From assembly GCF_964213995.1 (NCBI RefSeq), contig NW_027590109.1, forward strand, positions 434,001-498,000: a DNA stretch of 64,000 bases, in the 5' to 3' direction. Both the position numbers and the translations under genes were made by a program. The notes under the pieces were generated by a model. The model did not search any database. It was not told where the DNA came from and worked only from the letters and a program-made list of their open reading frames with translations. The stretch comes from Mustelus asterias (taxonomy: Eukaryota). Of the stretch, positions 1 through 48,987 are shown in pieces. Position 1 is the stretch's first letter. Each line of letters begins with the position of its first letter.

Positions 1-1980
1 GAGAGCAGGAATGGAGTGAGGTGGAGGATGAATGCGTGGCTGAGGGACTGGAGCAGGGGGAAGGGATTCAGGATCGTGGATCACTGGGACCGCTTGAGGG
101 CAGGTGTGACCTGTACAAAAAAGACGGGTGGCACTTGAATCCCAGGGGTACCAATATCCTGGCAGGAAGGCTGGCTAAGGCTCCTGGGGAGAATTTAAAC
201 TAGAAAGGTTGGGGGGAGGGAATCGAGATGAGGTGACTGGGAGCGAGGAGGGTAGCCCGCAAATAGAGAAGGATTGTAGACAGTGGAATAGAGATAATAG
301 ACGGGTGAAATAGAAGGGGAGAGCTCAGACCAAAGGTTTGAGATGTGTCTATTTTAACGCCAGGAGTGTAGTCAATAAAGTGGATGAGCTTAGAGTGTGG
401 ATCGATGCTTGGCAGTGTGATGTGGTGGCAATTGCAGAGACTTGGGGACAGGGACAGCGCTGGATACTTAATGTGCCGGGTTTCAGATGTTTCAGAAAGG
501 ACAGAGAGGCAAAAGAGGGGGTGGGTGGAGTGGCACTGCTGACCAGGGATAGTGTCACAGCTGTAGAGAAGGGGGATGCCGTGGAGGGATTGTCTACGCA
601 GTCTCTGTGGGTGGAAGTTCGGAGCGGGAAGGGGTCGATAACTTTGCTGGGTGTTTTCTACAGGCCACCCAATAGTAACAGGGATGTTGAGGAGCAGATA
701 GGGAAACAGATCCTGGAGAGATGTAGTAATAACAGGGTTGTCGTGATGGGAGACTTTTAATTCCCAAACATCGGTTGGAATATCCCTAGGGTAAGGGGTT
801 TGGATGGGGAGGTGTTTGTAAGGTGTGTTCAGGGGGGTTTCTTGACGCAGCACAAGAGGAGAGGCTGTTCTCGATCTGGTACTGGCTAATGAGCCTGGAC
901 AGGTGTCGGATCTCTCAGTGGGGGAGCATCTTGGGGATAGTGATCATAACACGATCTCCGTTATGCGAGCATTGGAAAGAGATAGGATCAGGCAAGCTAG
1001 GAAGGTGTTTATCTGGAGTAAGGGGAAACATGAATCCATCAGGCAGGAGACTCGAGGCGTAAATTGGAAGGAGGTATTCTCAAGGAAAAATACCGAAGTA
1101 AGGTGGCAGATTTTCAAGATATATTTGTCTAGAGTTCTACATGACAACGTTCTGATCAGACAGGGAGGTTTGGTAGGTTACGGGAACCGTGGTGCACGGA
1201 AGCTGTGCTGAACCGAGTCAAAAAGAAAAGAAAAGGGTACAAAAGGTTCAGAGAGCTAGGGGTAGATAGGGATCTACATGAGTATACGGCTTGTAGGAAT
1301 GGATCACGGCCATTCCCGGGTCTCGGTAAAGTGGACAACTGCGTGGATGCAGGTCGGATCGCGTTAGTGACCTCACACCCGACTTTACCACGTTTTCCCG
1401 TCCAAATTCGGGCGCGAAGAAATTGTAAAATTGGGCCCATAGTGTTCAATTCCAGTCGCCACACTACCAGAAGGATGTGGAGGCTTTGGCGAGCGTACAG
1501 AGGAGATGCCTGGCATGGAGGGCATTATCTATGAGGAGCGGTTGGATAAACTTGGTTTGTTCTCAATGGAACGACGGAGGGGCGGGGGGGGGGGGGGGGG
1601 GGGCGGGGTTGGAGTCAAGATTATGAGAAGCCTGGGCAGAGTGGATAGTCAGAAACTTTTTCCCAGGTTGGAAGAGTCAATTACGAGGGGGCATCTGATA
1701 AAGGTGCGAGGGGAAAGGTTTAAAGGAGGTGTACGGAGCAGGTTTTTTTACACAAAGGGTGGTGGGTACCTAGAACACGCTGCCTTGGGAAATAATGGAA
1801 GCAGATGCAACAGTGACTTTTGAGGGGCGTCTGGACAAATACATGAATAGGATGGGAATCGAGGGATATGGTCCCTGGAAGGGTAGGGAGTTTTAGTTCA
1901 GTCAGACAGCTTGGTCAATTCAGGCTTGGAGGGCCGAAGGGCGTGTTCCACTGCTGCAATTGTCCTTGTTCTTTGGTCTT
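1..1980 (+). mobile_element. Degraded CR1/HER1-type LINE: end of ORF1 (SGNH esterase-like), APE endonuclease, large internal deletion, 3' end
   Basis: ORF 21-203 has DGWHLNPRGTNILAGRL (CR1 ORF1 esterase end). ORF 338-760 has YFNARS..AIAETW..FYRPP..VMGDF (APE). The C-terminus resumes near 1440 and ends in gggccgaagggc..ttgttcttt. Confidence 0.93.
1297..1438. mobile_element. Non-LINE, CpG-rich insert at the LINE deletion junction; possible half of a MITE
   Basis: Unrelated to the flanking LINE frame. Contains an internal inverted match (ggtaaagt / actttacc) and ends in gtaaaattgggccc. Confidence 0.4.
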
Positions 1981-2881: not shown

Positions 2882-3262
2882 TTTTTAGGGCGATCCTTTC
2901 ATTTACTTTTTCCTCAACCTGCATTTTAAGCTGTCCTATCTCGTCTTCTATCTGGAATTCAAACTGTTTCAATTATTTTGCTTGTTGTTCTTCCATTTCT
3001 CTGTCTTTTCCTACTGCAATTGCATCCTTTTATTGGGCTTTGGTGATATCTCTCATTCCTTGCTTAGAATTCGAGCTGCTTCATTTCAAGTTGACTTCTA
3101 ACCATTACCAAAGATTCTGCCTGTGTTTCTGGCAATTTTCAATGCTGAGCTATTGCTAGAATTATCTACTACCCTGCCTTGCGCCGTCAGGTGATATCAA
3201 CTGCAACATTTTTGCCTATTCCGAAATCTTCGTTTTAGTCACCTCTTGCAAACCACCCTCCT

Positions 3263-3430
3263 TGATTTCTACCACCCCAGCCTCCGAATAAACCTTTATT
3301 TCACAAGTTATTCCTATTTCAACCTGAATAGGAGATCTGAAATGAAAATGATTTCTACCATCCTTTGCCTCCGAACAAACCTTTATTTCACAAGTTATTC
3401 CTATTTCAACCTGAATAGGAGATCTGAAAT
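3263..3430. repeat. Two-copy tandem duplication (about 87-bp period) next to the LINE 5' junction
   Basis: aaacctttatttcacaagttattcctatttcaacctgaataggagatctgaaat occurs twice, ending at 3343 and 3430. Confidence 0.95.
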
Positions 3431-6400
3431 TATTAGTTGGAGAGCATATTACAGCGGTGCAGAGGGAGGACAATTCAGAGGGTCGTGTAACGAGTCACTC
3501 TGGGTGAAGCTTAGAAACAGGAAAGGCGCAGTCACTATGTTGGGGGTGGATTACAGGCCCGCCAACAGCCCAAGGGAAGTGGAAGAATGGATATGTCAGG
3601 AGATACTGGATAGGTGCAGGAAATATAGGGTTGTTGTAGTGGGAGACTTCAATTTCCCTGGTATAGACTGGAAATCGCTGAGGGCAGGGTCTCTGGATGG
3701 GGAGGAATTTGTAAAATGTGTACAGGAGGGTTCGTTGGAACAATATGTAGACAGCCCGACTAGAGAGGGGGCTATACTGGACCTGGTACTGTGGAATGAG
3801 CTCGGTCAGGTCTTCAATGTTTTGGTAGGGGAACATGTGGCAAATAGTGACCACAATTCTGTTAGCTTTAGGATAGTGATGGAAAAGGATGAGTGGTGTC
3901 CCAAGGGTAAGGTGCTGAATTGGGGGAAGGCTAACTTTACTGGGATCAGGCAGAAATTGGCAGCTTTTGATTGGGAGAGGCTGTTTGAGGGTACATCCAC
4001 ATCTGGTATGTGGCACTCTTTTAAGGAACGGTTGTTAGGGCTACAGGACACGCATGTGCCGGTAAAAAAGAAGGATAGGAAGGGTAGGATTAGAGAACCG
4101 TGGATAACCAGGGAAATTGAGGGACTGGTCAAAAAGAAAAGAGAGGCGTATGTTAGGTCCAAGCAGCTAAAAACGGAGGGAGCTCTGGAGGAGTACAAAG
4201 AAAGTAGGAAAGTACTCAAACGGGGAATTAGAAGAGCAAAAAGGGGTCACGAAATGTTCTTGGCAGACAGGATTAAGGAGAATCCCAAGGCATTTTATTC
4301 ATACGTTAGGAACAAAAGGGTTGTTAGGGAAAAAATCGGACCTCTCAGGGACAAAAGTGGGGACTTATGCTTGGAGCCCAAAGAAGTAGGGGAGATCCTA
4401 AATGAATACTTTGCGTCAGTATTCACAAAGGAGAGGGATGTGTTGACTGGGAGTGTCTCGGAGGGGAGTGTTGAACCGTTGGAGAAAATCTCCATTACAA
4501 AGGAGGAAGTGTTAGGTTTGTTAGAGAATATAAAGACTGACAAATACCCAGGGCCTGATGGAATCTATCCAAGGCTGCTCAGGGAGACGAGAGGTGAAAT
4601 CGTTGGGCCTCTGACGCAAATCTTTGTCTCGTCACTGGACACAGGTGAGGTCCCAGAGGATTGGAGGATAGCCAATGTGGTCCCGTTATTTAAGAAGGGT
4701 AGGAAGGATAACCCGGGTAATTATAGGCCGGTGAGCTTGACGTCCGTGGTGGGGAAGTTGTTGGAGAAGATTCTTAGAGATAGGATATATGCGCATTTAG
4801 AAAGGAATAAACTCATTGACGATAGTCAGCATGGTTTTGTGAGAGGGAGGTCATGCCTCACTAACCTGGTGGTGTTTTTTGAAGAAGTGACCAAAATGGT
4901 TGACGAAGGAAGGGCCGTGGATGTTGTCTATATGGACTTTAGTAAAGCGTTTGACAAAGTCCCTCATGGTAGGCTAGTGAAAAAGGTTGGATCTCATGGG
5001 ATAAAGGGGGAGGTGGCTAGATGGGTGGAGAACTGGCTTGGTCATAGAAGACAGAGGGTGGTAGTGGAAGGGTCCTTTTCCGGCTGGAGGCCTGTGACTA
5101 GTGGTGTACCGCAGGGCTCTGTATTGGGACCTCTGCTGTTTGTGATTTATATAAATGATCTGGAAGAAGGAGTAACTGGGGTGATCAGTAAGTTTGCGGA
5201 CGACACAAAACTGGCAGGACTTGCAGATAGTGAGGAACATTGTCAGAGGCTACAGAAGGATATAGATAGGCTGGAAATTTGGGCAAGGAAATGGCAGATG
5301 GAGTTCAATCCTGATAAATGCGAAGTGATGCATTTTGGTGGGAATAATGTAGGGAGGAGCTACACGATAAATGGAAGAACCATTAAGGGTGTAGAGACGC
5401 AGAGGGACCTGGGTGTGCAAGTCCACAGATCTTTGAAGGTGACGTCACAGGTGGAGAAGGTGGTGAAGACGGCATATGGCATGCTTGCCTTTATAGGACG
5501 GGGCATAGAGTATAAAAGTTGGGTTCTGATGTTGCAGATGTATAGAACGTTGGTTCGGCCGCATTTGGAATACTGCGTCCAGTTCTGGTCGCCACACTAC
5601 CAGAAGGACGTGGAGGCTTTGGAGAGAGTACAGAGGAGGTTTACCAGGATGTTGCCTGGTATGGAGGGGCTTGGTTATGAGGAGAGATTGGGGAAACTGG
5701 GGTTGTTCTCCTTGGAAAGACGGAGGATGAGGGGAGACCTAATAGAGGTGCATAAAATTATGAAAGGCATAGATAGGGTGAACGGTGGGAAGCTTTTCCC
5801 CGGGTCGGTGGTGACGTTCACGAGGGGTCAAAGGTTCTAGGTGAAGGGGGGGAGGTTTAACACAGATATCAGAAGGACATATTTTACACAGAGGGTCGTG
5901 GGGACCTGGAATGTGTTGCCGGGCAAGCTGGTGGAGGCGGACACACTGGGAACGTTTAAGACTTATCTAGACAGCTATATGAACGGAGTGGGAATGGAGG
6001 GATACAAAAGAGTGGTCTAGTTTGGACCAGGGAGCGGCGCGGGCTAATTGTTCTTTGTTTCTCGTTTCAAGGCTTCATTCTATGATCATCTTGCTGGTGC
6101 CAGTACAGAGCGAGACTGCGGATAGTTGGGAACCTGTCTCGGGGGCAGGGAATTCAGATGGTGTTCGTAAATCAGAAGGGGAAACGAATAGGGTTGGGAA
6201 GCATTTTCTGATCTGGGCCAGTGTGATCTCCTGGACTCGTTTCGATCGCCTCAGGGGGTCGGAGAGGAATTGTCCAGATTTTTTTTCCCCATATTGGCCC
6301 TGGGGTTTTCACTCTGGGTTTTCGCCTCTCCCTGGAGATCACATGGTCTGGAATGGGGGGTGGGGGTGAGTTAATAGGTTGTGATGAACAAAGCATCGTA

Positions 6401-17215: not shown

Positions 17216-17257
17216 TAAATAGGGTTTACAGAAGTAAGTACTGGACTTGACACTTAC

Positions 17258-17492
17258 CAGGGACACCAATCAGAGCCAGGATGGGATAATAAAATCCTTG
17301 AACAAAGTAGAGTACAAGTAGAATCCGCGATTGTAATGATCGCCTATAGAACCCATCACTTGTCATGAAATAAAGTCCCTCAGCGAAAGTGCCACTTATA
17401 TCAAAATCAAAAGGCGGTGGGGGTGGTGGGGGTGGGATGTTCCGAAGCATTGTTCCCAGATTCTGATCCATTGCTGAAACGTTCCAGTCCAT
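17258..17492 (-). CDS. Coding exon 1 of a GPR139/GPR142-like class A GPCR (N-terminus and first half of TM1); phase-1 intron follows
   Basis: MDWNVSAMDQNLGTM..ILLVLYFVQGFYYPILALIGVP ends exactly at the donor CCTG|GTAAGT. N-glycosylation sequon NVS. The YYPILA.IGVP|(V)N junction is characteristic of this family (recognised from memory, not by search). Confidence 0.78.
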
Positions 17493-18084
17493 TGTTCTCA
17501 AATTCTGCTCTCCCCTCCCACTGTCCCTGCAACTGATAACCTCTACTAGTGCCGGGGTTGTCACTCCTGCTGAGTCTATCGAATAACACACTGAACGAAT
17601 CCATTATTAATAGAAGAAGGAAAACCTCCACTGACACTGCCCAGATCCATGGAGACTGATATTAATCACAGTCATTAGACAAACAGCTTCAGTTAACCCC
17701 ATTCAATCCAGCACTTTTTATGTCACATAATGCAACAGTAACCTGGTCTGCATGGGATGGCAAGGGTCAGGGAGGGATGGAAAGACGGAAATAACAGAGG
17801 GTCCGACCATAAACTTTCAATCTTCATTGGATATTAGAGTGGGCCCTGAGTTATCATGACGGTGGGTTTTAGATGAGGCAATCATTTGTCAGATTGATAG
17901 AGACTGCTGAAATCTACTCTGTTTTTAACACGTTCAGTCCAGCACCGAACTTTATTTTAAATAAGCAGAAATAAAACCAAAATGAATATTGCATGAGAGG
18001 AATGAAAAAAAGGACTTGGTGTGAACTTGGACACAAGCAAATGTCAACACTCAGTAGATGTAACCAGCCGTTTTTTTTTCTGAA

Positions 18085-18760
18085 TCCATTCAGTGATGAT
18101 TGGTTCTACAACATTCCATATTGCTTTCAGGGGAAACCCACTTATCTGTCTCTCAAAGGCGCTTACTGGATGTTTTTGGAAACAAGGAATATCCATAGCT
18201 ACCTATTGGATGGAAAGGATCGTTTTCCTTGGATATGTAGTCCCATATATGTATCATTCTTATCGGCTTTCGTTTGGGAGAGATCGACGTGTCCTTGTGA
18301 GAATTCACAAGTTTGTTGGTATAATGATGCCCCCGTTTGCATCTGAAAGAATGTTAACTGACATTGAAGCTGTTAAGTCGGTTTTGAAACAGGTTGCCAA
18401 TGACACTGCTGTAGCTCTCATTGAGTGGAGTGATGAGATGGTTGCAATGCGGACTGTTGTGCTATAGAATTGAACGACACTAGTCTTCATTTTGGTGGCT
18501 AAGCGTAGAGTGTGTGCTTTGATGGGAATGAAGTGTTGCACATACATACCTGACACTTCAGAGAAGAGAACGAATTTTGTCACACACAGGTCGAAAAACA
18601 TAAACGACAAACATAACTTTCCTTGTGGAAATGGGCAACTGGCTGGATGGGTGATTTGGGGTCAAACATAATGCAAGGGCTAGTGTTTTTCTTCATTGCT
18701 ATCTTAATATTCAGTGTGAGTTTAGAATTTTTAAATGCTGCTGTTATTTAGCAGCAAAAT
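18085..18760 (+). pseudogene. env: Endogenous retrovirus env relic (end of SU and TM subunit, gamma-type)
   Basis: GAYW..GYVVPY (SU end), furin site RDRR (18279-18290), fusion peptide FVGIMMPPFAS, heptad region, immunosuppressive domain L*N*TTLVFIL (from LQNR), CX6CC CALMGMKCCTYIPD (18513-18539), hydrophobic anchor GLVFFFIAILIF. Confidence 0.9.
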
Positions 18761-19304
18761 CCATAGCGGGTGCAGCAGCAGAGGCGTCGATCCAGGTGGA
18801 CAAGGAACTGTCCTTATCACGAAGCGCTCCTCCAGCATGTGCGACTACGTATTGCCAGACATCGATCTGAAGGACGACATAATATGAGATAATATTGTTT
18901 TTTCTTGGGATTTTAGTATGAGTGAGGATTATGATTTAAATGCGGTTAGAACAACTTATATAACATTACCAATGACTATCAAATCTAAGAAGGACGAAAT
19001 CATGAACCAATCACCTCTTACGTTTTAGGCTATTTTATTTGCTGGCCGAGTATTGGGCTCGCCAATGGTCAGATGGGAGGACGGAGGTGGTGTAAGTCTC
19101 ATAGGTTAACACGATTTTTAAACATTAGACATTAAGGCACTGACAGAACAAGCAGCCAAGCGTTAAATTCATCTAAAAAAATATGGGCTAACAAGAGAAA
19201 AGTTTACACAAACGCAAATGCAGCAAGAGCTTTAAACAAGTAATTATGATTTAAAACATTTATGCTGACATTTCAAATGTATTTGAAGTATTTAACAAAA
19301 AACA

Positions 19305-20590
19305 GAGAACAATGAACAGAGAAAATTACAGCACAGGAATGGGCCTTTAGGCCCTTCAAGCCTGCACCGACCATGTTGCCCGAGCGACCGAAAAACCCCG
19401 ACTCTTCTGGGGACCATATCCCTCTTTTCTCATCCTATTCATGTATTTGTTCAAACGTCCCTTAATAGTCACTTTCATATCTGTTTCCAATACCTCCCCT
19501 GGCAGCGAGTTCCAGATACCCACCACCCTCTGTGTGAAAAACGTGCCTCATACATCTCCTTTAAACCTTACCTTAAATCTTAATCGTATGCCCCGGAGGA
19601 ATTGACTCTTCCACCCTGGGAAAAAACATCTGACTATTCACTCTGCCCATGCTTCTCTTCATTTTGTAGACTTCTATCAGGTCGCTCCTCAATCTCCGTT
19701 GTTCCAGTGAGGACAAACCAAGTTTATCCAAACTCTCCTCATACCAGGCAACATCCTGGTAAACATTTTCTGTACCCTCTCCAAAGCCTCCACATCCTTC
19801 TGGTAGTGGGGCGACCAGAAATGAAGACTATATTCCAAGTGCGGCCTAATTAAGTTCATATAAAGCTGCAGCATGACTTGACAATTTTGAAACTCAGTGC
19901 CCCGGCCGCTGAAGGCAAGCATGCCGTATGCCTTCTTGACTAGCTTCTCCACCTGCGTTGCCACTTCCAGTGACCTGTGCACCTGCACAACCAGATCCCT
20001 CTGCTATCAATACTCTTGAGGGTTCTGCCATTTATTGACTATTTCCCATCTGTATTGGATCTTCCAAAATGCATTACCTTACATTTTTCCGGATTAATCT
20101 CCAACTGCCGTCTCTCCGCCAAAGTCTCCAACCGGTCTATATCATGCTGTATCCTCTGACGGTCCTCATCACTACCCGCAATTCCACCAACCTTTGTGAC
20201 GTCTGCAAACTTACTCATCAAACCAGTTGCATTTTCCTCCAAATCATTTATATATGTTTAAAACAGCAAAGGTCCCCGCACTGATCCCTGAGGACCGCCG
20301 CTTGTCACAGCCCTCCATTCGGAAATGCGCCCTTCCACTGTGACCCTCTGTCTTCTGTGACCGAGTCAGTTCTGTATCCATCTTGCCAACTCATCTGTGA
20401 TTCCTTGCGACTTTAACCGTCTGTACCAATGTTACATGACGGACCTTGTCAAAGGCCATACTGAAGTCCGTGTGTCAATATCTACTCCCTTACGCTCATC
20501 AATCATCTTCGTCACTTCCTTGAAAAACTCGATCAATTTAGTGAGACACAATCTCCCCTTCAGAAAACATGTTGCCTCTCGATAATGCGA
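19305..20590 (-). mobile_element. CR1 LINE 3' half
   Basis: SKFADVTK..INPEKC (20039-20242); RPHLEYSLHFWSPH (19689-19988); reverse tail at ~19305. Confidence 0.95.
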
Positions 20591-20599
20591 ACGTTTATT

Positions 20600-21080
20600 T
20601 CCGTGTTGGAGTAAATGCTGTCTCGAAGAAACCTGGGATGCAGGCCATCAGGCCCAGGGGATTCATTTGTCCTAAATCCCAATAGTTTGCTGCGTACCTC
20701 TTCCCTTTCGATGTTGATTGTTCTAAGTTACACCCTTTGTAAAATCTCTGGCTTGTCGTTCCTATAGGAATGGTACTATTGTAGTCCACCGTGAAAACTG
20801 AGGCAAAGTAGTTGATTTAGCATCTCTGCCATTTTAGTGTTCCCCAATATTAACTCTCCGGTTTCATCTTCCAATGGCCAACTTTCACCCTGGTGATTCT
20901 CTTCCTTTTTAATGTACGTTTTTGCTATACTCATGCTATTTTTCCCTAGTTTTCGTTTGTAATTTACCCAAGCTCTTTTTATTACTTTTTTAAAAATCCC
21001 TTCCTTGATGTTTGAACGTTTCCTAATCTTCTCGCCTGCCACTGGTCTTAGCAATAGCTTGGTTTTTGCCTTTATGGATT
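20600..21080 (-). mobile_element. CR1 ORF2 middle fragment
   Basis: PLEDETGELILGNTKMAEMLNQ (20776-21054), followed by a GPDG-like region. Confidence 0.8.
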
Positions 21081-21084
21081 ATGG

Positions 21085-22255
21085 ATAATGATACTCTGTG
21101 CACAACAAGCAATATTGTAGGTGATATTTAGTACCTGAACTGTATACATTGCTCCCAGTGTTGTCTGAATAATGAATATTGAGATCTAAAATGTGCTAAA
21201 AGCTCCTGGCAAGGCATAACAGAGATATGGGCAGCAAAGGATAGTGTTGTAGGATTTGTCCAATTGAGGGTGATCGATGGACGGCCTGTGCACAATGAAC
21301 TCAGGAGATTAAAAATGAGGGGTTTGGATATCAGAACTGTGTGCAGTATTCCAACTGTATTCAAGAAAAGAGATATGGGGGAAGCGAACAGCACTTAATA
21401 GTCCCAGTGCTGTCCAAAAGATGTTATAGAAACAGGAACTGCACACAATGCTCCCAGTGTTGTATAAAATAGGTACACTGATACAGTAACCGTGCACACA
21501 TATTTGAGTGATGCTTAAATTAGGGGGGGTTTCTGTTGGAACTGCACAGTCATCAAACTGCTGTGTACATGACGGGTTTGGAGACCAACAATTTGCAGAG
21601 TGATCCATGATTGGACTACCCGAAGTATGTGAAGAAGATAAAGTAAAGGTAAAGAGTATTTGTTCGGGAACACGAAAGGCTGACATTAACACTGCAATGT
21701 AGTTACTGTGACATTCCCCGACCCGCTACAGTCCGGCGCCTTTTCGGGCCAATGCACCTACCGAGCACATCTTTCAGACTGTGGAAGAAAACCGGAGCAT
21801 GCGGAGGAAACCCACGAAGACACGGGGAGGATGTGCAAACGCTACACAGACAGTGATCCAAGCTGGCAATCGAACCCGAGTCCCTGGTGCTGTGAGGGAG
21901 CAGTGCTAACCACTGTGCCGTTGTGCCGTTTATCTGTGCATATCGTCCCCTCTGCTGTCTAAATGTACGATATTGATATCAGAGCAGTGCACAATGATCT
22001 CAATCTTGTCTAAGTGCGTCGCATGAAAACGAGAACTGTGCACTGTGATCTTTTTGTAACCTAACTGAGAGATAGGGATCAGAAATGATATTGATATCGG
22101 TATCAGTGATGTTGTTTTTATGAACCAATAAATATGGACACCCATACTGTGCATAGTGAGCTAAGGGTGTTAACATTGTCATCCTATTGTGGCCCTTTGT
22201 GTAATACAACAATTTGTTACTTTCGAACTGTTTCCCCATCTGTTAATTATGTGCC
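21085..22255. repeat. Degenerate ~51-bp tandem array, block 1 (interrupted by a SINE)
   Basis: Recurring unit resembling cagaactgtgcacaatgctcccagtgttgtctaaatgagggatatgggaa, e.g. ~21137, ~21332, ~21436, ~22033. Confidence 0.8.
21640..21928 (-). mobile_element. HE1-related SINE (alternative tail) inserted in the tandem array
   Basis: cattaacactgcaatg..gaaaccggagca..aatcgaaccc..gtgctaaccactgtgccg. Confidence 0.9.
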
Positions 22256-22289
22256 TCCAACCTAGAAATGATCGGCTACCAGGTGCCAC

Positions 22290-22632
22290 CCTGTCTCACA
22301 AAAGTGACCATGGTTTAAGGACATGGAATTACTGATTCACTCCAAGATAGTATCCAGCAGCACACTAACGCCTCTGCGGAATATGCACAGGCTACCATTC
22401 AACAAGGTTGCGCACAGAATCCAGTTGTCCACCTTTGTGCGTCAACCTGAAGACCCTTGTGTAACATAAATGCATCAGATCTACTGTTAAACAAACACAT
22501 TGATCTGGAATTGATTGCTGTGCCCAGAGCAACTGAACGTTTTTACATCCATTGTGTGTAACAGCGTTTGATAAATTTTCTAATACAATACATGGTCAGT
22601 CCTCCTTGACTATTCAAGGAGGACTGACTAGG
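22290..22632 (+). mobile_element. Possible highly degraded RTE-clade LINE 3' end with terminal hairpin
   Basis: Weak resemblance to an RTE C-terminus; ends in the perfect inverted repeat gtcagtcctccttga-ctat-tcaaggaggactgac. Confidence 0.35.
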
Positions 22633-23042
22633 CGAATATATTTTCCCTTTTCACCCGTATCTGGTCCGTTATCACCTTGAATACTTTATTCTATTCAATA
22701 TTGAATACTGTCATTCCAGGGAACACAACAGGTGTTTCTCCAATTTCTACTTGTGAGTGTGGACTTGTAGTCCCAGGAGCATTTCTATTCAGAGCACATT
22801 GCATTCCAGTCATGTCCGACAACATGCATCCGTATAGCTCACCTATAATTGATGACCTTATATCTCTCTGACATAGCGGAGTGATATGAAATGTTTTCCA
22901 ATCAAAAATTATGGTCCACGAATCAAAAGTACTTTGGACGTTCCTTCCATCTTTGGGATAGATACAATCAGAAAGTTCCGGAGTTGGATGCCTTAAGTCC
23001 CATTATTGCCTCTGTGTCTGTAAATGTTCTTGTTCTATGTAT

Positions 23043-23330
23043 GGGTGGTGCGGTGGCACACTGATTACCAAGGCTGCCTCACTGCACCAGGGTCTCGAGT
23101 TGAATTCGGGCCTTGGCTGAATTTCTGTGTGGAGTTTGCACGTTCTCCCCGTGTCTGTGTGGGTTTCCTCCTGTTTCCTCCCTATGTCGAAGGACATGCA
23201 GGTTAGATGGATTGACAATACTAAATGTCCCCATTTTGGCCCAAATTTTAACCTGTATAAAGATTAGCCATGATTAATGTGTGGGGTTAAGGGATAGGTC
23301 AGAGGAAAGGCTGCTGAGTCTCAGGCCAGA
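23043..23330 (+). mobile_element. Degraded HE1-type SINE
   Basis: tgtgtggagtttgcacgttctccccgtgtctgtgtgggtttcctc. Confidence 0.85.
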
Positions 23331-23639
23331 AACTCCATGATGTTTTGTGATGTTAGCCTCGACATAAGTCTTACATTTCATACTGTCTCTGATGAGTTGA
23401 TTCACTCGGAAGCTTGCATCAAACAACCTTCATTTAAGAACACAGTTAGATGATAGCAAAGCGGATTAACATTTTATATTTACCAGTTACAAGACTTACA
23501 CATCACACAGTATAATTCTTAAAAACTAGCTATCTGTATTGTTCCAATTGTAGTTCAATCCCCGAGGCATACACGCACCTTCAGACCTAGGTAGCATTGA
23601 AACAACTATGTTCACGTGATACTTGATTTCCAGCTTTTT

Positions 23640-24510
23640 AACATCTATGGACAGAAATCCAAACAGCACTTTTCAGAGTACGATATGACGCTAAGATAGC
23701 GAGGGATATTAAGAACAGAACTGTGCATAATGCTCCCCAGTGTTGCCCAAATGGTGCATGCGGAGAACAGAGCTGAACACAATTCTCCAGGTTTTGTCTC
23801 AATTAAATATATGGACATTGGGAACTCTGTAGAATGCATTGGCTGGGAACGAAATTAGGGGCATGGACAGTATTTGCAATGTCAAAATTAATTGCTGACT
23901 AGATGAAGGAAGTAGGGAACAGAAGTGCGGCACCGTCCTCAAGTGCACTGAAAACTAGGGATATGCAGAAGCAAAATGTACGCAGGCCTTCAGTTTGTTG
24001 TGTAAATGAGGGATATGGATAACAAAACTGTACAATCTACACTAAATTTTTCCAAAGCGAGGAGAATAATTGTGCACAATGTTCCATGTGACCGAAATGA
24101 GAGACATGGAGAGGGCATCATATATAATATTCAAAGTGTCGTCTAAATGACGTAGATGAGGAACAGAACCATCGACCATGTTTCACGTTTGTTCCGCACT
24201 ATAAATAAGGCGACCAGAACTGCTCACAAAACTTCAGATGTAATCTGAAAAATTAATACAAACTCAACAACCTTGCAAGAGATCAATGTGCGGTCCAAGC
24301 ACCGCATACAAAACCAGAGTTTTCCATGGTATTTGATGTGATTTACAGCTAATTCCTAAGTAGGTCAGAAAAGTGCACGTTTCTGCAAGTGTTTTGTAAT
24401 CCAAGGGATTGGAGCCTATTTCTGTCACCAATGCTCGCAATGCTGTCAAAATTGGTGATATGGATTTCGGAAAACTTCACGCTTCTCGGATTGTTCTCTA
24501 AATGAGTGGG
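23640..24510. repeat. Degenerate ~51-bp tandem array, block 2
   Basis: aacagaactgtgcataatgctccccagtgttgcccaaatg.. is followed one unit later by aacagagctgaacacaattctccaggttttgtctcaatt.. Confidence 0.8.
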
Positions 24511-48145: not shown

Positions 48146-48987
48146 ATAATGTTGGGACATAGATAGGATGGAAGACTGGGCGGAGAAGTGGTAGATGGAC
48201 TTCAACCCAGATGAATGCGTAGTGGTCCATTTTGGCAGGTCAAATGGGATGAAGGAGTACAATATAAAGGGAAAGACTCTTGGTACTGTAGAGGATCAGA
48301 AGGACCTTGGGGTCCGAGTCCATAGGTCTCTAAAATCGGCCCTGCAGGTGGAGGAGGTGGTTAAGAAGGCGTATGGTGTGCTGGCCTTTATCAATCGATG
48401 GATTGAGTTTAGGAGTCATGCGATAATGATGCAGCTATATAAGACCCTCGTCAGACCCCACTTGAAGTACTGTGCTCAGTTCTGGTCGCCTCATTACAGG
48501 AAGGATGTGGAAAAGATTGAAAGGGTGCAGAGGCGATTTACAAGGATGTTGCCTGGATTGAGTGGCATGCCTATGAGGATAGGCTGAGGGAGCTCGGTCT
48601 TTTCTCCTTGGAGAAACGTTGGTGAGAGGAGACCTAATAGAGGTATATAAGATGTTGAGAGGCATAATTCGGGTGGACTGTCAGAGGCTTTTTCCCAGGG
48701 TGTAAATGGCTGCTACGAGAGGACACAGGTTTTAGGTGCTGGGGTGTAGGTACAGGGGAAATGTTCGGGGGAAGTTTTTCACACAGAGGGTTGTGGGCGA
48801 GTGGAATCGGCTGCCGTCAGTGGTGGTGGTGGGAAACTCAAAAGGGTCTTTTAAGAGACACCTGGATGAGTACATGGGACTTAATAGGATGTAGGGGTAT
48901 AGGTAGGCCTAAAAGGTAGAGATATGTTCGGCCCAACAAGTTGTGCCGAAGGACCTGTTTTGTGCTGTAGTTTTCTATGTTTCTATG
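48146..48987 (+). mobile_element. 5'-truncated CR1 LINE with 10-bp target-site duplication
   Basis: ORF 48195-48587 (FNPDEC..RPHLKYCAQFWSP); tail (tttctatg)2; tagcaccgac at 48136-48145 and 48988-48997. Confidence 0.96.

Follow-up and report, generated by a model that had tools for sequence, protein, structure and literature searches.

A decayed copy of a 51-bp CR1-derived minisatellite in the genome of Mustelus asterias

Introduction

A degenerate tandem repeat of about 51 bp occupies positions 21085–24510 of a 64,000-nucleotide stretch of the Mustelus asterias genome (hereafter, the window) and lies upstream of an exon resembling those of GPCR genes. The locus raises the question of where such an array comes from, whether it belongs to its present neighbourhood, and whether it has any function there. 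An earlier note, made from the letters of the window alone, had read the array as an old satellite amplified from one piece of a CR1 reverse-transcriptase gene and had speculated that its transcripts could act against CR1. Transposon-derived minisatellites, including multilocus ones, are a class described in the parts of the literature on which we draw (Ahmed and Liang 2012, PMC3389668; PMC6947457; PMC9659126), and CR1-derived tandem repeats, namely, HinfI (SCR1) and the CR1-C-derived centromeric repeats, are listed for chicken in the relevant sections of two of these papers (PMC9659126, PMC6947457).

Results

The array and its place in a duplicated block

The claimed period of about 51 bp was borne out in both blocks of the earlier note and exceeded all shuffled controls. 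The number of 4-mer matches at a lag of 48–54 was 76 in the block 21085–22255 (mean 37 and maximum 56 in 200 dinucleotide shuffles) and 57 in the block 23640–24510 (mean 29 and maximum 47, likewise in 200 dinucleotide shuffles); the best base-identity lag was 51 in both, and the stretch between them gave 45 matches against 42 expected, that is, no periodicity. Tandem Repeats Finder at a score of 30, a check suggested in the earlier note, did not detect the array, and this blindness indicates that the array is very decayed.

A search of the species' own genome with positions 23700–24230 resulted in 35 matches among 35 scored candidates, four of them at 98–100% identity, 23 at 87–91%, and eight more distant. 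The homology of these duplicates spans kilobases on both sides of the array, and the close group also has the GPCR-like exon of the window (17257–17492, minus strand), the first exon of a rhodopsin-family GPCR gene, which lies in the duplicated block as a neighbour outside the array. The distance to this exon, previously given as about 4–7 kb, was measured as 3.6–7 kb, and the closeness of the array to the GPCR gene follows from the location of both in one duplicated block. Pfam returned no hit for the window exon 17257–17492 alone; in the old paralog L110 (C73), the array is again located upstream of such an exon, the exon end matches, and the second exon matches 7tm_1 with an E value of 1e-19. 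As for the label of the receptor, the mu-opioid receptor (1.4e-7) and GPR139 (4.1e-7) scored alike. Frameshifts in the second exons near the window, L102 (C60:424234–425000, minus strand) and L105, give these members of the cluster the look of pseudogenes, and the second exon of L110 is open. In addition, a 5.6-kb tandem duplication (L037–L038, C92) copies the whole array region inside one paralog, and broken frames at 18084–18870 (plus strand) of the window resemble, by eye, the transmembrane part of a retroviral envelope, with Pfam support absent.

Comparison with the old paralogs, together with tiling against the unit of the wider family described below, refined the layout. The two blocks of the earlier note both contain array, but there are in fact three blocks, and its first block includes a SINE. 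In total, about 33 decayed 51-bp units are present, interrupted by this SINE and an older insert, and gap-free tiling gave 62–66% identity between the family unit and the window units (66% in block A1, 62% in block B). Block A1 (21085–21640, minus strand, which is the CR1 sense here), with about 11 decayed units, and block B (23645–24510, minus strand), with about 17, were defined by periodicity and tiling against the family unit; block A2 (21931–22200, minus strand), with about five units, runs on from A1 in the old paralogs. The intervening element (21640–21930, minus strand), which we take, by eye, to be a tRNA-type SINE, was inserted after the oldest duplications: it is missing from the old paralogs, one of which (L029, 5274/5279) joins window position 21634 directly to 21931. 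The insert 22200–23640 itself contains a SINE, predates the duplications, is common to the old paralogs, and aligns in them, with neither periodicity nor unit signal; when used as a control in one tiling, this middle segment scored 90 against 33–70 for five shuffled units, a signal absent in the periodicity and in the later tiling. At the left end of the array, a younger CR1 fragment (19300–21080, minus strand) lies where the old paralogs have about 10 further units; their left block amounts to about 25 units by tiling, and the figure of 31–37 units was rejected as an over-extension. This comparison supports the view that the array is old and has taken in a SINE and other insertions. A separate observation concerns the old insert, in which an inverted repeat at about 22590–22630 is self-complementary at 32 of 34 bases and gives a weak microRNA match in Rfam; both matches returned by Rfam fell far short of the gathering scores.

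Young arrays of the same unit

A young array of this unit was found on contig C264 via a motif pair at 51-bp spacing. Genome-wide, the core motif gave 2,705 matches, and a pattern of two adjacent units gave 1,490, against 0 for the reversed control. The young arrays measure 0.2–6 kb, the longest exceeding 100 units, and are located in the first 5 Mb of C20, in C24, and in small contigs, mostly at 47–59% GC. This distribution is consistent with the part used here of a report in which higher GC and tandem-repeat contents are described for the short chromosomes of sharks (PMC10620051). At the same time, C1–C19, which account for 66% of the bases, contain no young tandem pair; their 45 core motifs lie at 44 loci, all of which were examined, with 43 single motifs and one decaying interior array of about nine units. 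A subtelomeric satellite was rejected, since eight of C1–C19 start with telomere repeats yet lack young tandem pairs, the one decaying array being interior.

Among the 31 arrays profiled, homogeneity within an array was 0.88–0.99, and unit subtypes clustered by contig; unit lengths in young arrays are a mixture of 50, 51, and 52. Both the window array and the young arrays consist of head-to-tail units in the range of 10–100 bp, repeated above chance, as in transposon-derived minisatellites. Unit GC rises with flank GC (rho 0.43, p 0.016; 31 non-independent arrays), which is only a hint of biased conversion. The palindrome variant and the AT-to-GC changes were dropped as array-specific characters, because single CR1 copies have the same variant.

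Several neighbouring features were also recorded. Array pairs 1–2.5 kb apart are present at L114 and L224 (C230), one pair being oppositely oriented. Introns of ordinary genes contain an array or a seed at L072 (near 8100) and L180 (near 1000–1210), whose neighbours are presumably, by eye, one PP2A-scaffold-like exon and one BMP-receptor-like kinase exon. A separate repeat, very common and about 33 bp long (LSTDPLTVRHS in one frame), makes up arrays of kilobase length at L078, L081, L163, L164, and L176, with ORFs of more than 1,000 codons, in the same GC-rich loci as the 51-bp arrays.

The CR1 parent of the unit

The proposal that the array is LINE-born from a single 17-codon piece was supported by a CR1 match beyond shuffles and by the codon-exact unit. 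The 51-bp unit corresponds exactly to 17 codons of CR1 ORF2, in the TLVRPHLEYCAQFWSPY region, and ends in the parent frame, running from a Thr codon to the first Tyr codon. The window majority unit, which was taken from an alignment to the young unit and is thus biased towards it, scored 62 against window 48400–48540 (mean 26 and maximum 49 in 2,000 shuffles) and 76 against one copy of the old parent subfamily, and none of 2,000 shuffles reached the score for each of three CR1 segments. The match to the CR1 copy at 48451 reported in the earlier note therefore beats all 2,000 shuffles, but the parent is a different, older subfamily: the nearest CR1 copies come from an old subfamily that reads ...WSPYYKKDIEALEKVQ, and the 48451 copy, part of a CR1 3' fragment (48150–48900, plus strand) of a related but different subfamily, is the same at 39 of 51 positions as the commonest unit and at 41 of 51 as the parent majority. 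This parent majority, derived from 13 single-motif copies, shares 41–48 of 51 positions with the array majorities and differs at 3–10. The reading noted for the ORF at 21128–21394 (minus strand) was confirmed, with ...LFRQHWEQCIQF preceding RY and a stop, and the window majority unit, compared by eye, is 48/51 like one young-array subtype. Elsewhere in the window, a CR1 ORF2 at 3195–5840 (plus strand) is open for 881 codons and has endonuclease and reverse-transcriptase domains.

The genome also contains a natural series in which the unit ends on parent codons and the ancestral junction exists. A 5'-truncated parent copy (L180), flanked by CR1 on either side, has about 1.6 units and retains the ancestral junction; about five units, again with CR1 on both sides, are present at a locus on C968; and about nine decaying units are present on a large chromosome (L282). 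A short direct repeat at the unit junction was not evident in the parent by eye. Another minisatellite, of about 33 bp, adjoins the 51-bp arrays at L117 (C1156), L120 (C3885), and L121 (C20 near 921 kb) and matches the same parent CR1 at a point about 275–335 bases downstream from the motif (the search profile included one of the three flanks), which gives this CR1 subfamily two repeat-forming spots.

Likeness of arrays and of their flanks

Parent-CR1 flanks were searched for at 31 distinct array loci, with locus duplicates counted once; they were firm downstream at seven loci, found upstream at two more, weak at two, and not seen at 20, two of which were assessable upstream only. Five flanks were in the profile used for the search, and all five had earlier passed against other references. 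The array is thus embedded in the parent element, in register, at nine of the 31 young loci, as well as at L180; the flank searches revealed no parent-CR1 flank at the window array and its old paralogs. Three weak matches (C20e, C1815, and C20f at its first cut) were not counted, nor was the match at C821, which was to a younger CR1; C20f was retained on a later match alone.

The parent-CR1 flanks of six array loci are 65–81% alike (15 pairs), with 67.5% over 268 columns for C20a and C1156, whereas the majorities of the long arrays of C20a, C1156, and C3428 are 0–2 bases apart. Arrays evolving independently should diverge to the extent that their flanks do; these arrays must therefore be linked in some way, and a unit that recurs at many separate loci with less divergence than the flanks is the pattern of concerted evolution. 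The CR1 flanks of array loci are as old as single-motif copies; their pairwise values (0.60 array–array, 0.54 array–single, and 0.55 single–single) come from poor alignments, in which one origin and several are indistinguishable. Shared young flanks, termini, or target-site duplications (the last judged by eye) were not found around the arrays. A mobile element with an internal tandem repeat was rejected as well: the flanks are unique or old CR1, and the arrays start and stop at any phase.

Decay of the window copy

Identity to five old paralog groups was 0.72–0.82 for the array and 0.77–0.82 for the right flank; the window array is no better conserved than its flanks across the segmental duplicates. 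In block B, only one of 42 distinct indels keeps the frame, and the other 41 shift it. The majority sequence of the paralogs is itself still only 69–70% like the family unit. The array was therefore already dead, having decayed by about 30%, when its GPCR-containing block was duplicated.

The unit in other organisms

Fifty-eight sampled 31-letter words of a young array were looked up in 24 sequencing runs, and 14 of these runs, from five organisms (A–E), contain 0.48–0.60 of the words: 0.55–0.60 for organism A, which is the window's species, and 0.48–0.57 for organisms B–E. Four runs were also mapped to window 20900–23100 at 80% likeness. Organism A gave a 380-base contig without any difference; organism D has the SINE family in common with the window, but not the locus; and hardly any mapping was obtained for organisms B and C, even to the SINE and CR1 that are abundant in the window (40–50 contigs against >30,000, with half of each run read). 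The presence of the words, though B and C barely map to the SINE, indicates that the unit is common to distant relatives. Long-lived satellites are known in slowly evolving lineages, as described in the part of PMC10900743 concerned with them.

Discussion

The array in the window is a real CR1-derived feature; it is a neutral fossil and belongs to a known class of repeats. It did not arise for this locus but is one dead member of a genome-wide family. The reading preferred here, to which a probability of about 0.78 is given, is that the array in the window is a 51-bp CR1 minisatellite in a dead, non-coding copy, that the young loci of this minisatellite are likely homogenised by exchange, and that the window copy likely dropped out of this exchange and decays like its flanks. 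The family would have been founded by an ancient duplication, or by a few of them, within a CR1 copy and then likely spread with or into CR1 copies, as suggested by the location of arrays inside dead parent copies at nine of 31 loci, either by retrotransposition of a duplication-bearing copy or by conversion into resident copies. For the long arrays, conversion may be slightly the likelier of the two routes. Slippage or unequal exchange would expand the arrays, ectopic gene conversion would homogenise them in the GC-rich compartment, and decay would proceed outside this exchanging compartment, as at L282 and in the window copy.

From the sequences compared, we infer that exchange between loci would be the simplest account of the likeness of arrays; selection is its rival and would give the same likeness. 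On the latter account, the unit is kept constant as a protein-binding site (in chromatin, recombination, or pairing), and the window copy is a lapsed site. It would fit the fraction of words held by organisms B–E (0.48–0.57, against 0.55–0.60 in A), while B and C barely map to the SINE or CR1, as well as the perfect 12-bp palindrome in each unit. However, a variant of the palindrome is also found in single, array-free CR1 copies, so the palindrome is insufficient for expansion, and fold z-scores are modest (−0.6 to −2.7), unit lengths are mixed (50, 51, and 52), and satellites can be long-lived in slowly evolving lineages anyway, judging from the portion of PMC10900743 considered. No observation made here supports a function of the window copy, and selection is regarded as improbable. 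The near identity across species exceeds simple neutral drift, provided that the species are as distant as they look, and counts against the preferred reading. A still lower probability is assigned to repeated, independent origin of arrays from a duplication-prone spot in resident CR1 copies, followed by mere convergence. Such an origin agrees with the occurrence of arrays in separate old CR1 copies with differing adjacent deletions and with the hot spots reported for human elements in the passages of PMC3389668 bearing on them, but 31 of 31 arrays have one period and one junction, a derived first base is found in 27 of 31 and a derived fifth base in 26 of 31 (majorities aligned to one unit), and flanks 25–35% apart would predict approximately 13–18 differing bases rather than 0–2.

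The proposals that give the array an activity of its own are less probable again. One of them is transcription into antisense or small RNAs silencing CR1, as the earlier note imagined. At 15 of 51 phases, 26-mers of the young unit do lie within 2–3 mismatches of a CR1 segment, and 0.22–0.28 of the young-array words are contained in three runs guessed to be RNA. For the window copy, the sequence fit to CR1 is poor: none of 113 CR1 segments matches it exactly over more than 15 nt, two of its 1,667 26-mers come within 3 mismatches of 40 sampled CR1 segments, and it decays like its flanks. Furthermore, three RNA-guessed runs of organism C contain next to no young-array words, and at least one young array is intronic (by eye), which would explain its words in RNA-guessed runs. 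A small-RNA role of the window copy thus appears unlikely, and the idea as a whole is given very low odds. Lower odds still attach to the unit as a cryptic RAG signal joint, with RAG nicking driving array turnover: the young unit has two head-to-head heptamer-like sites, which agree with a V(D)J signal joint at 13 of 14 bases, but the best nonamer-like match at a spacing of 12 or 23(+1) is 5 of 9 without an A tract (by eye), so that only the heptamer of a recombination signal sequence, which combines heptamer and nonamer at a spacing of 12 or 23, is present, and single CR1 copies that never expanded have the same letters. Finally, a coding exon of 17-residue repeats, perhaps a GPCR extension, would account for a 51-bp unit open in several frames and for the ORFs of more than 500 codons in pure-51 young arrays; with 41 of 42 indels frameshifting, stops in all frames of both long blocks, and the 88-codon ORF of the earlier note not kept in paralogs, this possibility is refuted for the window copy and is negligible overall. 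Protein relatives were not found, either: the protein Atlas gave only hits under 0.9, and in a homologue search, none of the 3,179 candidates of 93–298 residues matched at E 1e-5.

Returning to the dead CR1 minisatellite, several systems already described resemble it in part. Human transposon-derived minisatellites, as presented in the relevant sections of PMC3389668, likewise consist of a short internal retroelement slice repeated head to tail, often still inside the element and in some cases multilocus; here, unlike there, the source is CR1 ORF2, the slice is a whole number of codons, and >100 units are possible. Moreover, the arrays are near-identical between loci with flanks 25–35% apart, while the same sections describe local expansion and not inter-locus exchange. 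The chicken HinfI (SCR1) and CR1-C repeats and hamster PROsat (L1 ORF2) are also tandem repeats built from LINEs, including ORF2, but according to the entries used from PMC9659126 and PMC6947457, they contain longer CR1 parts (3' UTR and partial ORF2) or are centromeric, whereas the 51-bp unit is dispersed and ORF-internal. Crocodilian and sturgeon satellites resemble the present family in having a unit common to species of slowly evolving lineages, yet form large centromeric blocks in the account taken from PMC10900743, in contrast to arrays of 0.2–6 kb among genes on GC-rich contigs. The Haber–Louis model of minisatellite birth, as outlined in the pertinent part of PMC6947457, similarly starts from a duplication, on which slippage, conversion, or unequal crossing-over then acts, although the parent unit ends here without an evident 5–10 bp direct repeat (by eye). 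The 51-bp unit itself is undescribed in the portions of the literature covered by the search, including PMC13100897 and PMC11406177 with its two supplements; Repbase, Dfam, subscription journals, and most supplements were outside this scope.

The window copy itself is decaying filler, and a specialist might be surprised only by how alike the units are at different loci and in different species. The family offers a clean series from a single CR1 motif through 1.6, 5, 9, and >100 units to a fossil, in which one could study how a LINE slice becomes a minisatellite and how the genome compartment decides its survival. In practical terms, the arrays yield long false ORFs in introns, and masking is advisable. 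If inter-locus exchange or homing is true, ectopic gene conversion in the GC-rich chromosomes of sharks would be measurable. The homing version, doubtful but the boldest, would make the family a selfish minisatellite of cartilaginous fishes: a 17-codon CR1 slice that uses homology to convert dead CR1 copies to its own sequence, that is renewed by exchange among loci of the GC-rich compartment alone, and that has thereby kept nearly the same sequence in distant lineages over a longer time than the CR1 family from which it came. Should this reading hold, dead copies such as that in the window would mark DNA that left the exchanging compartment and would serve as a dated tracer of shark recombination domains.
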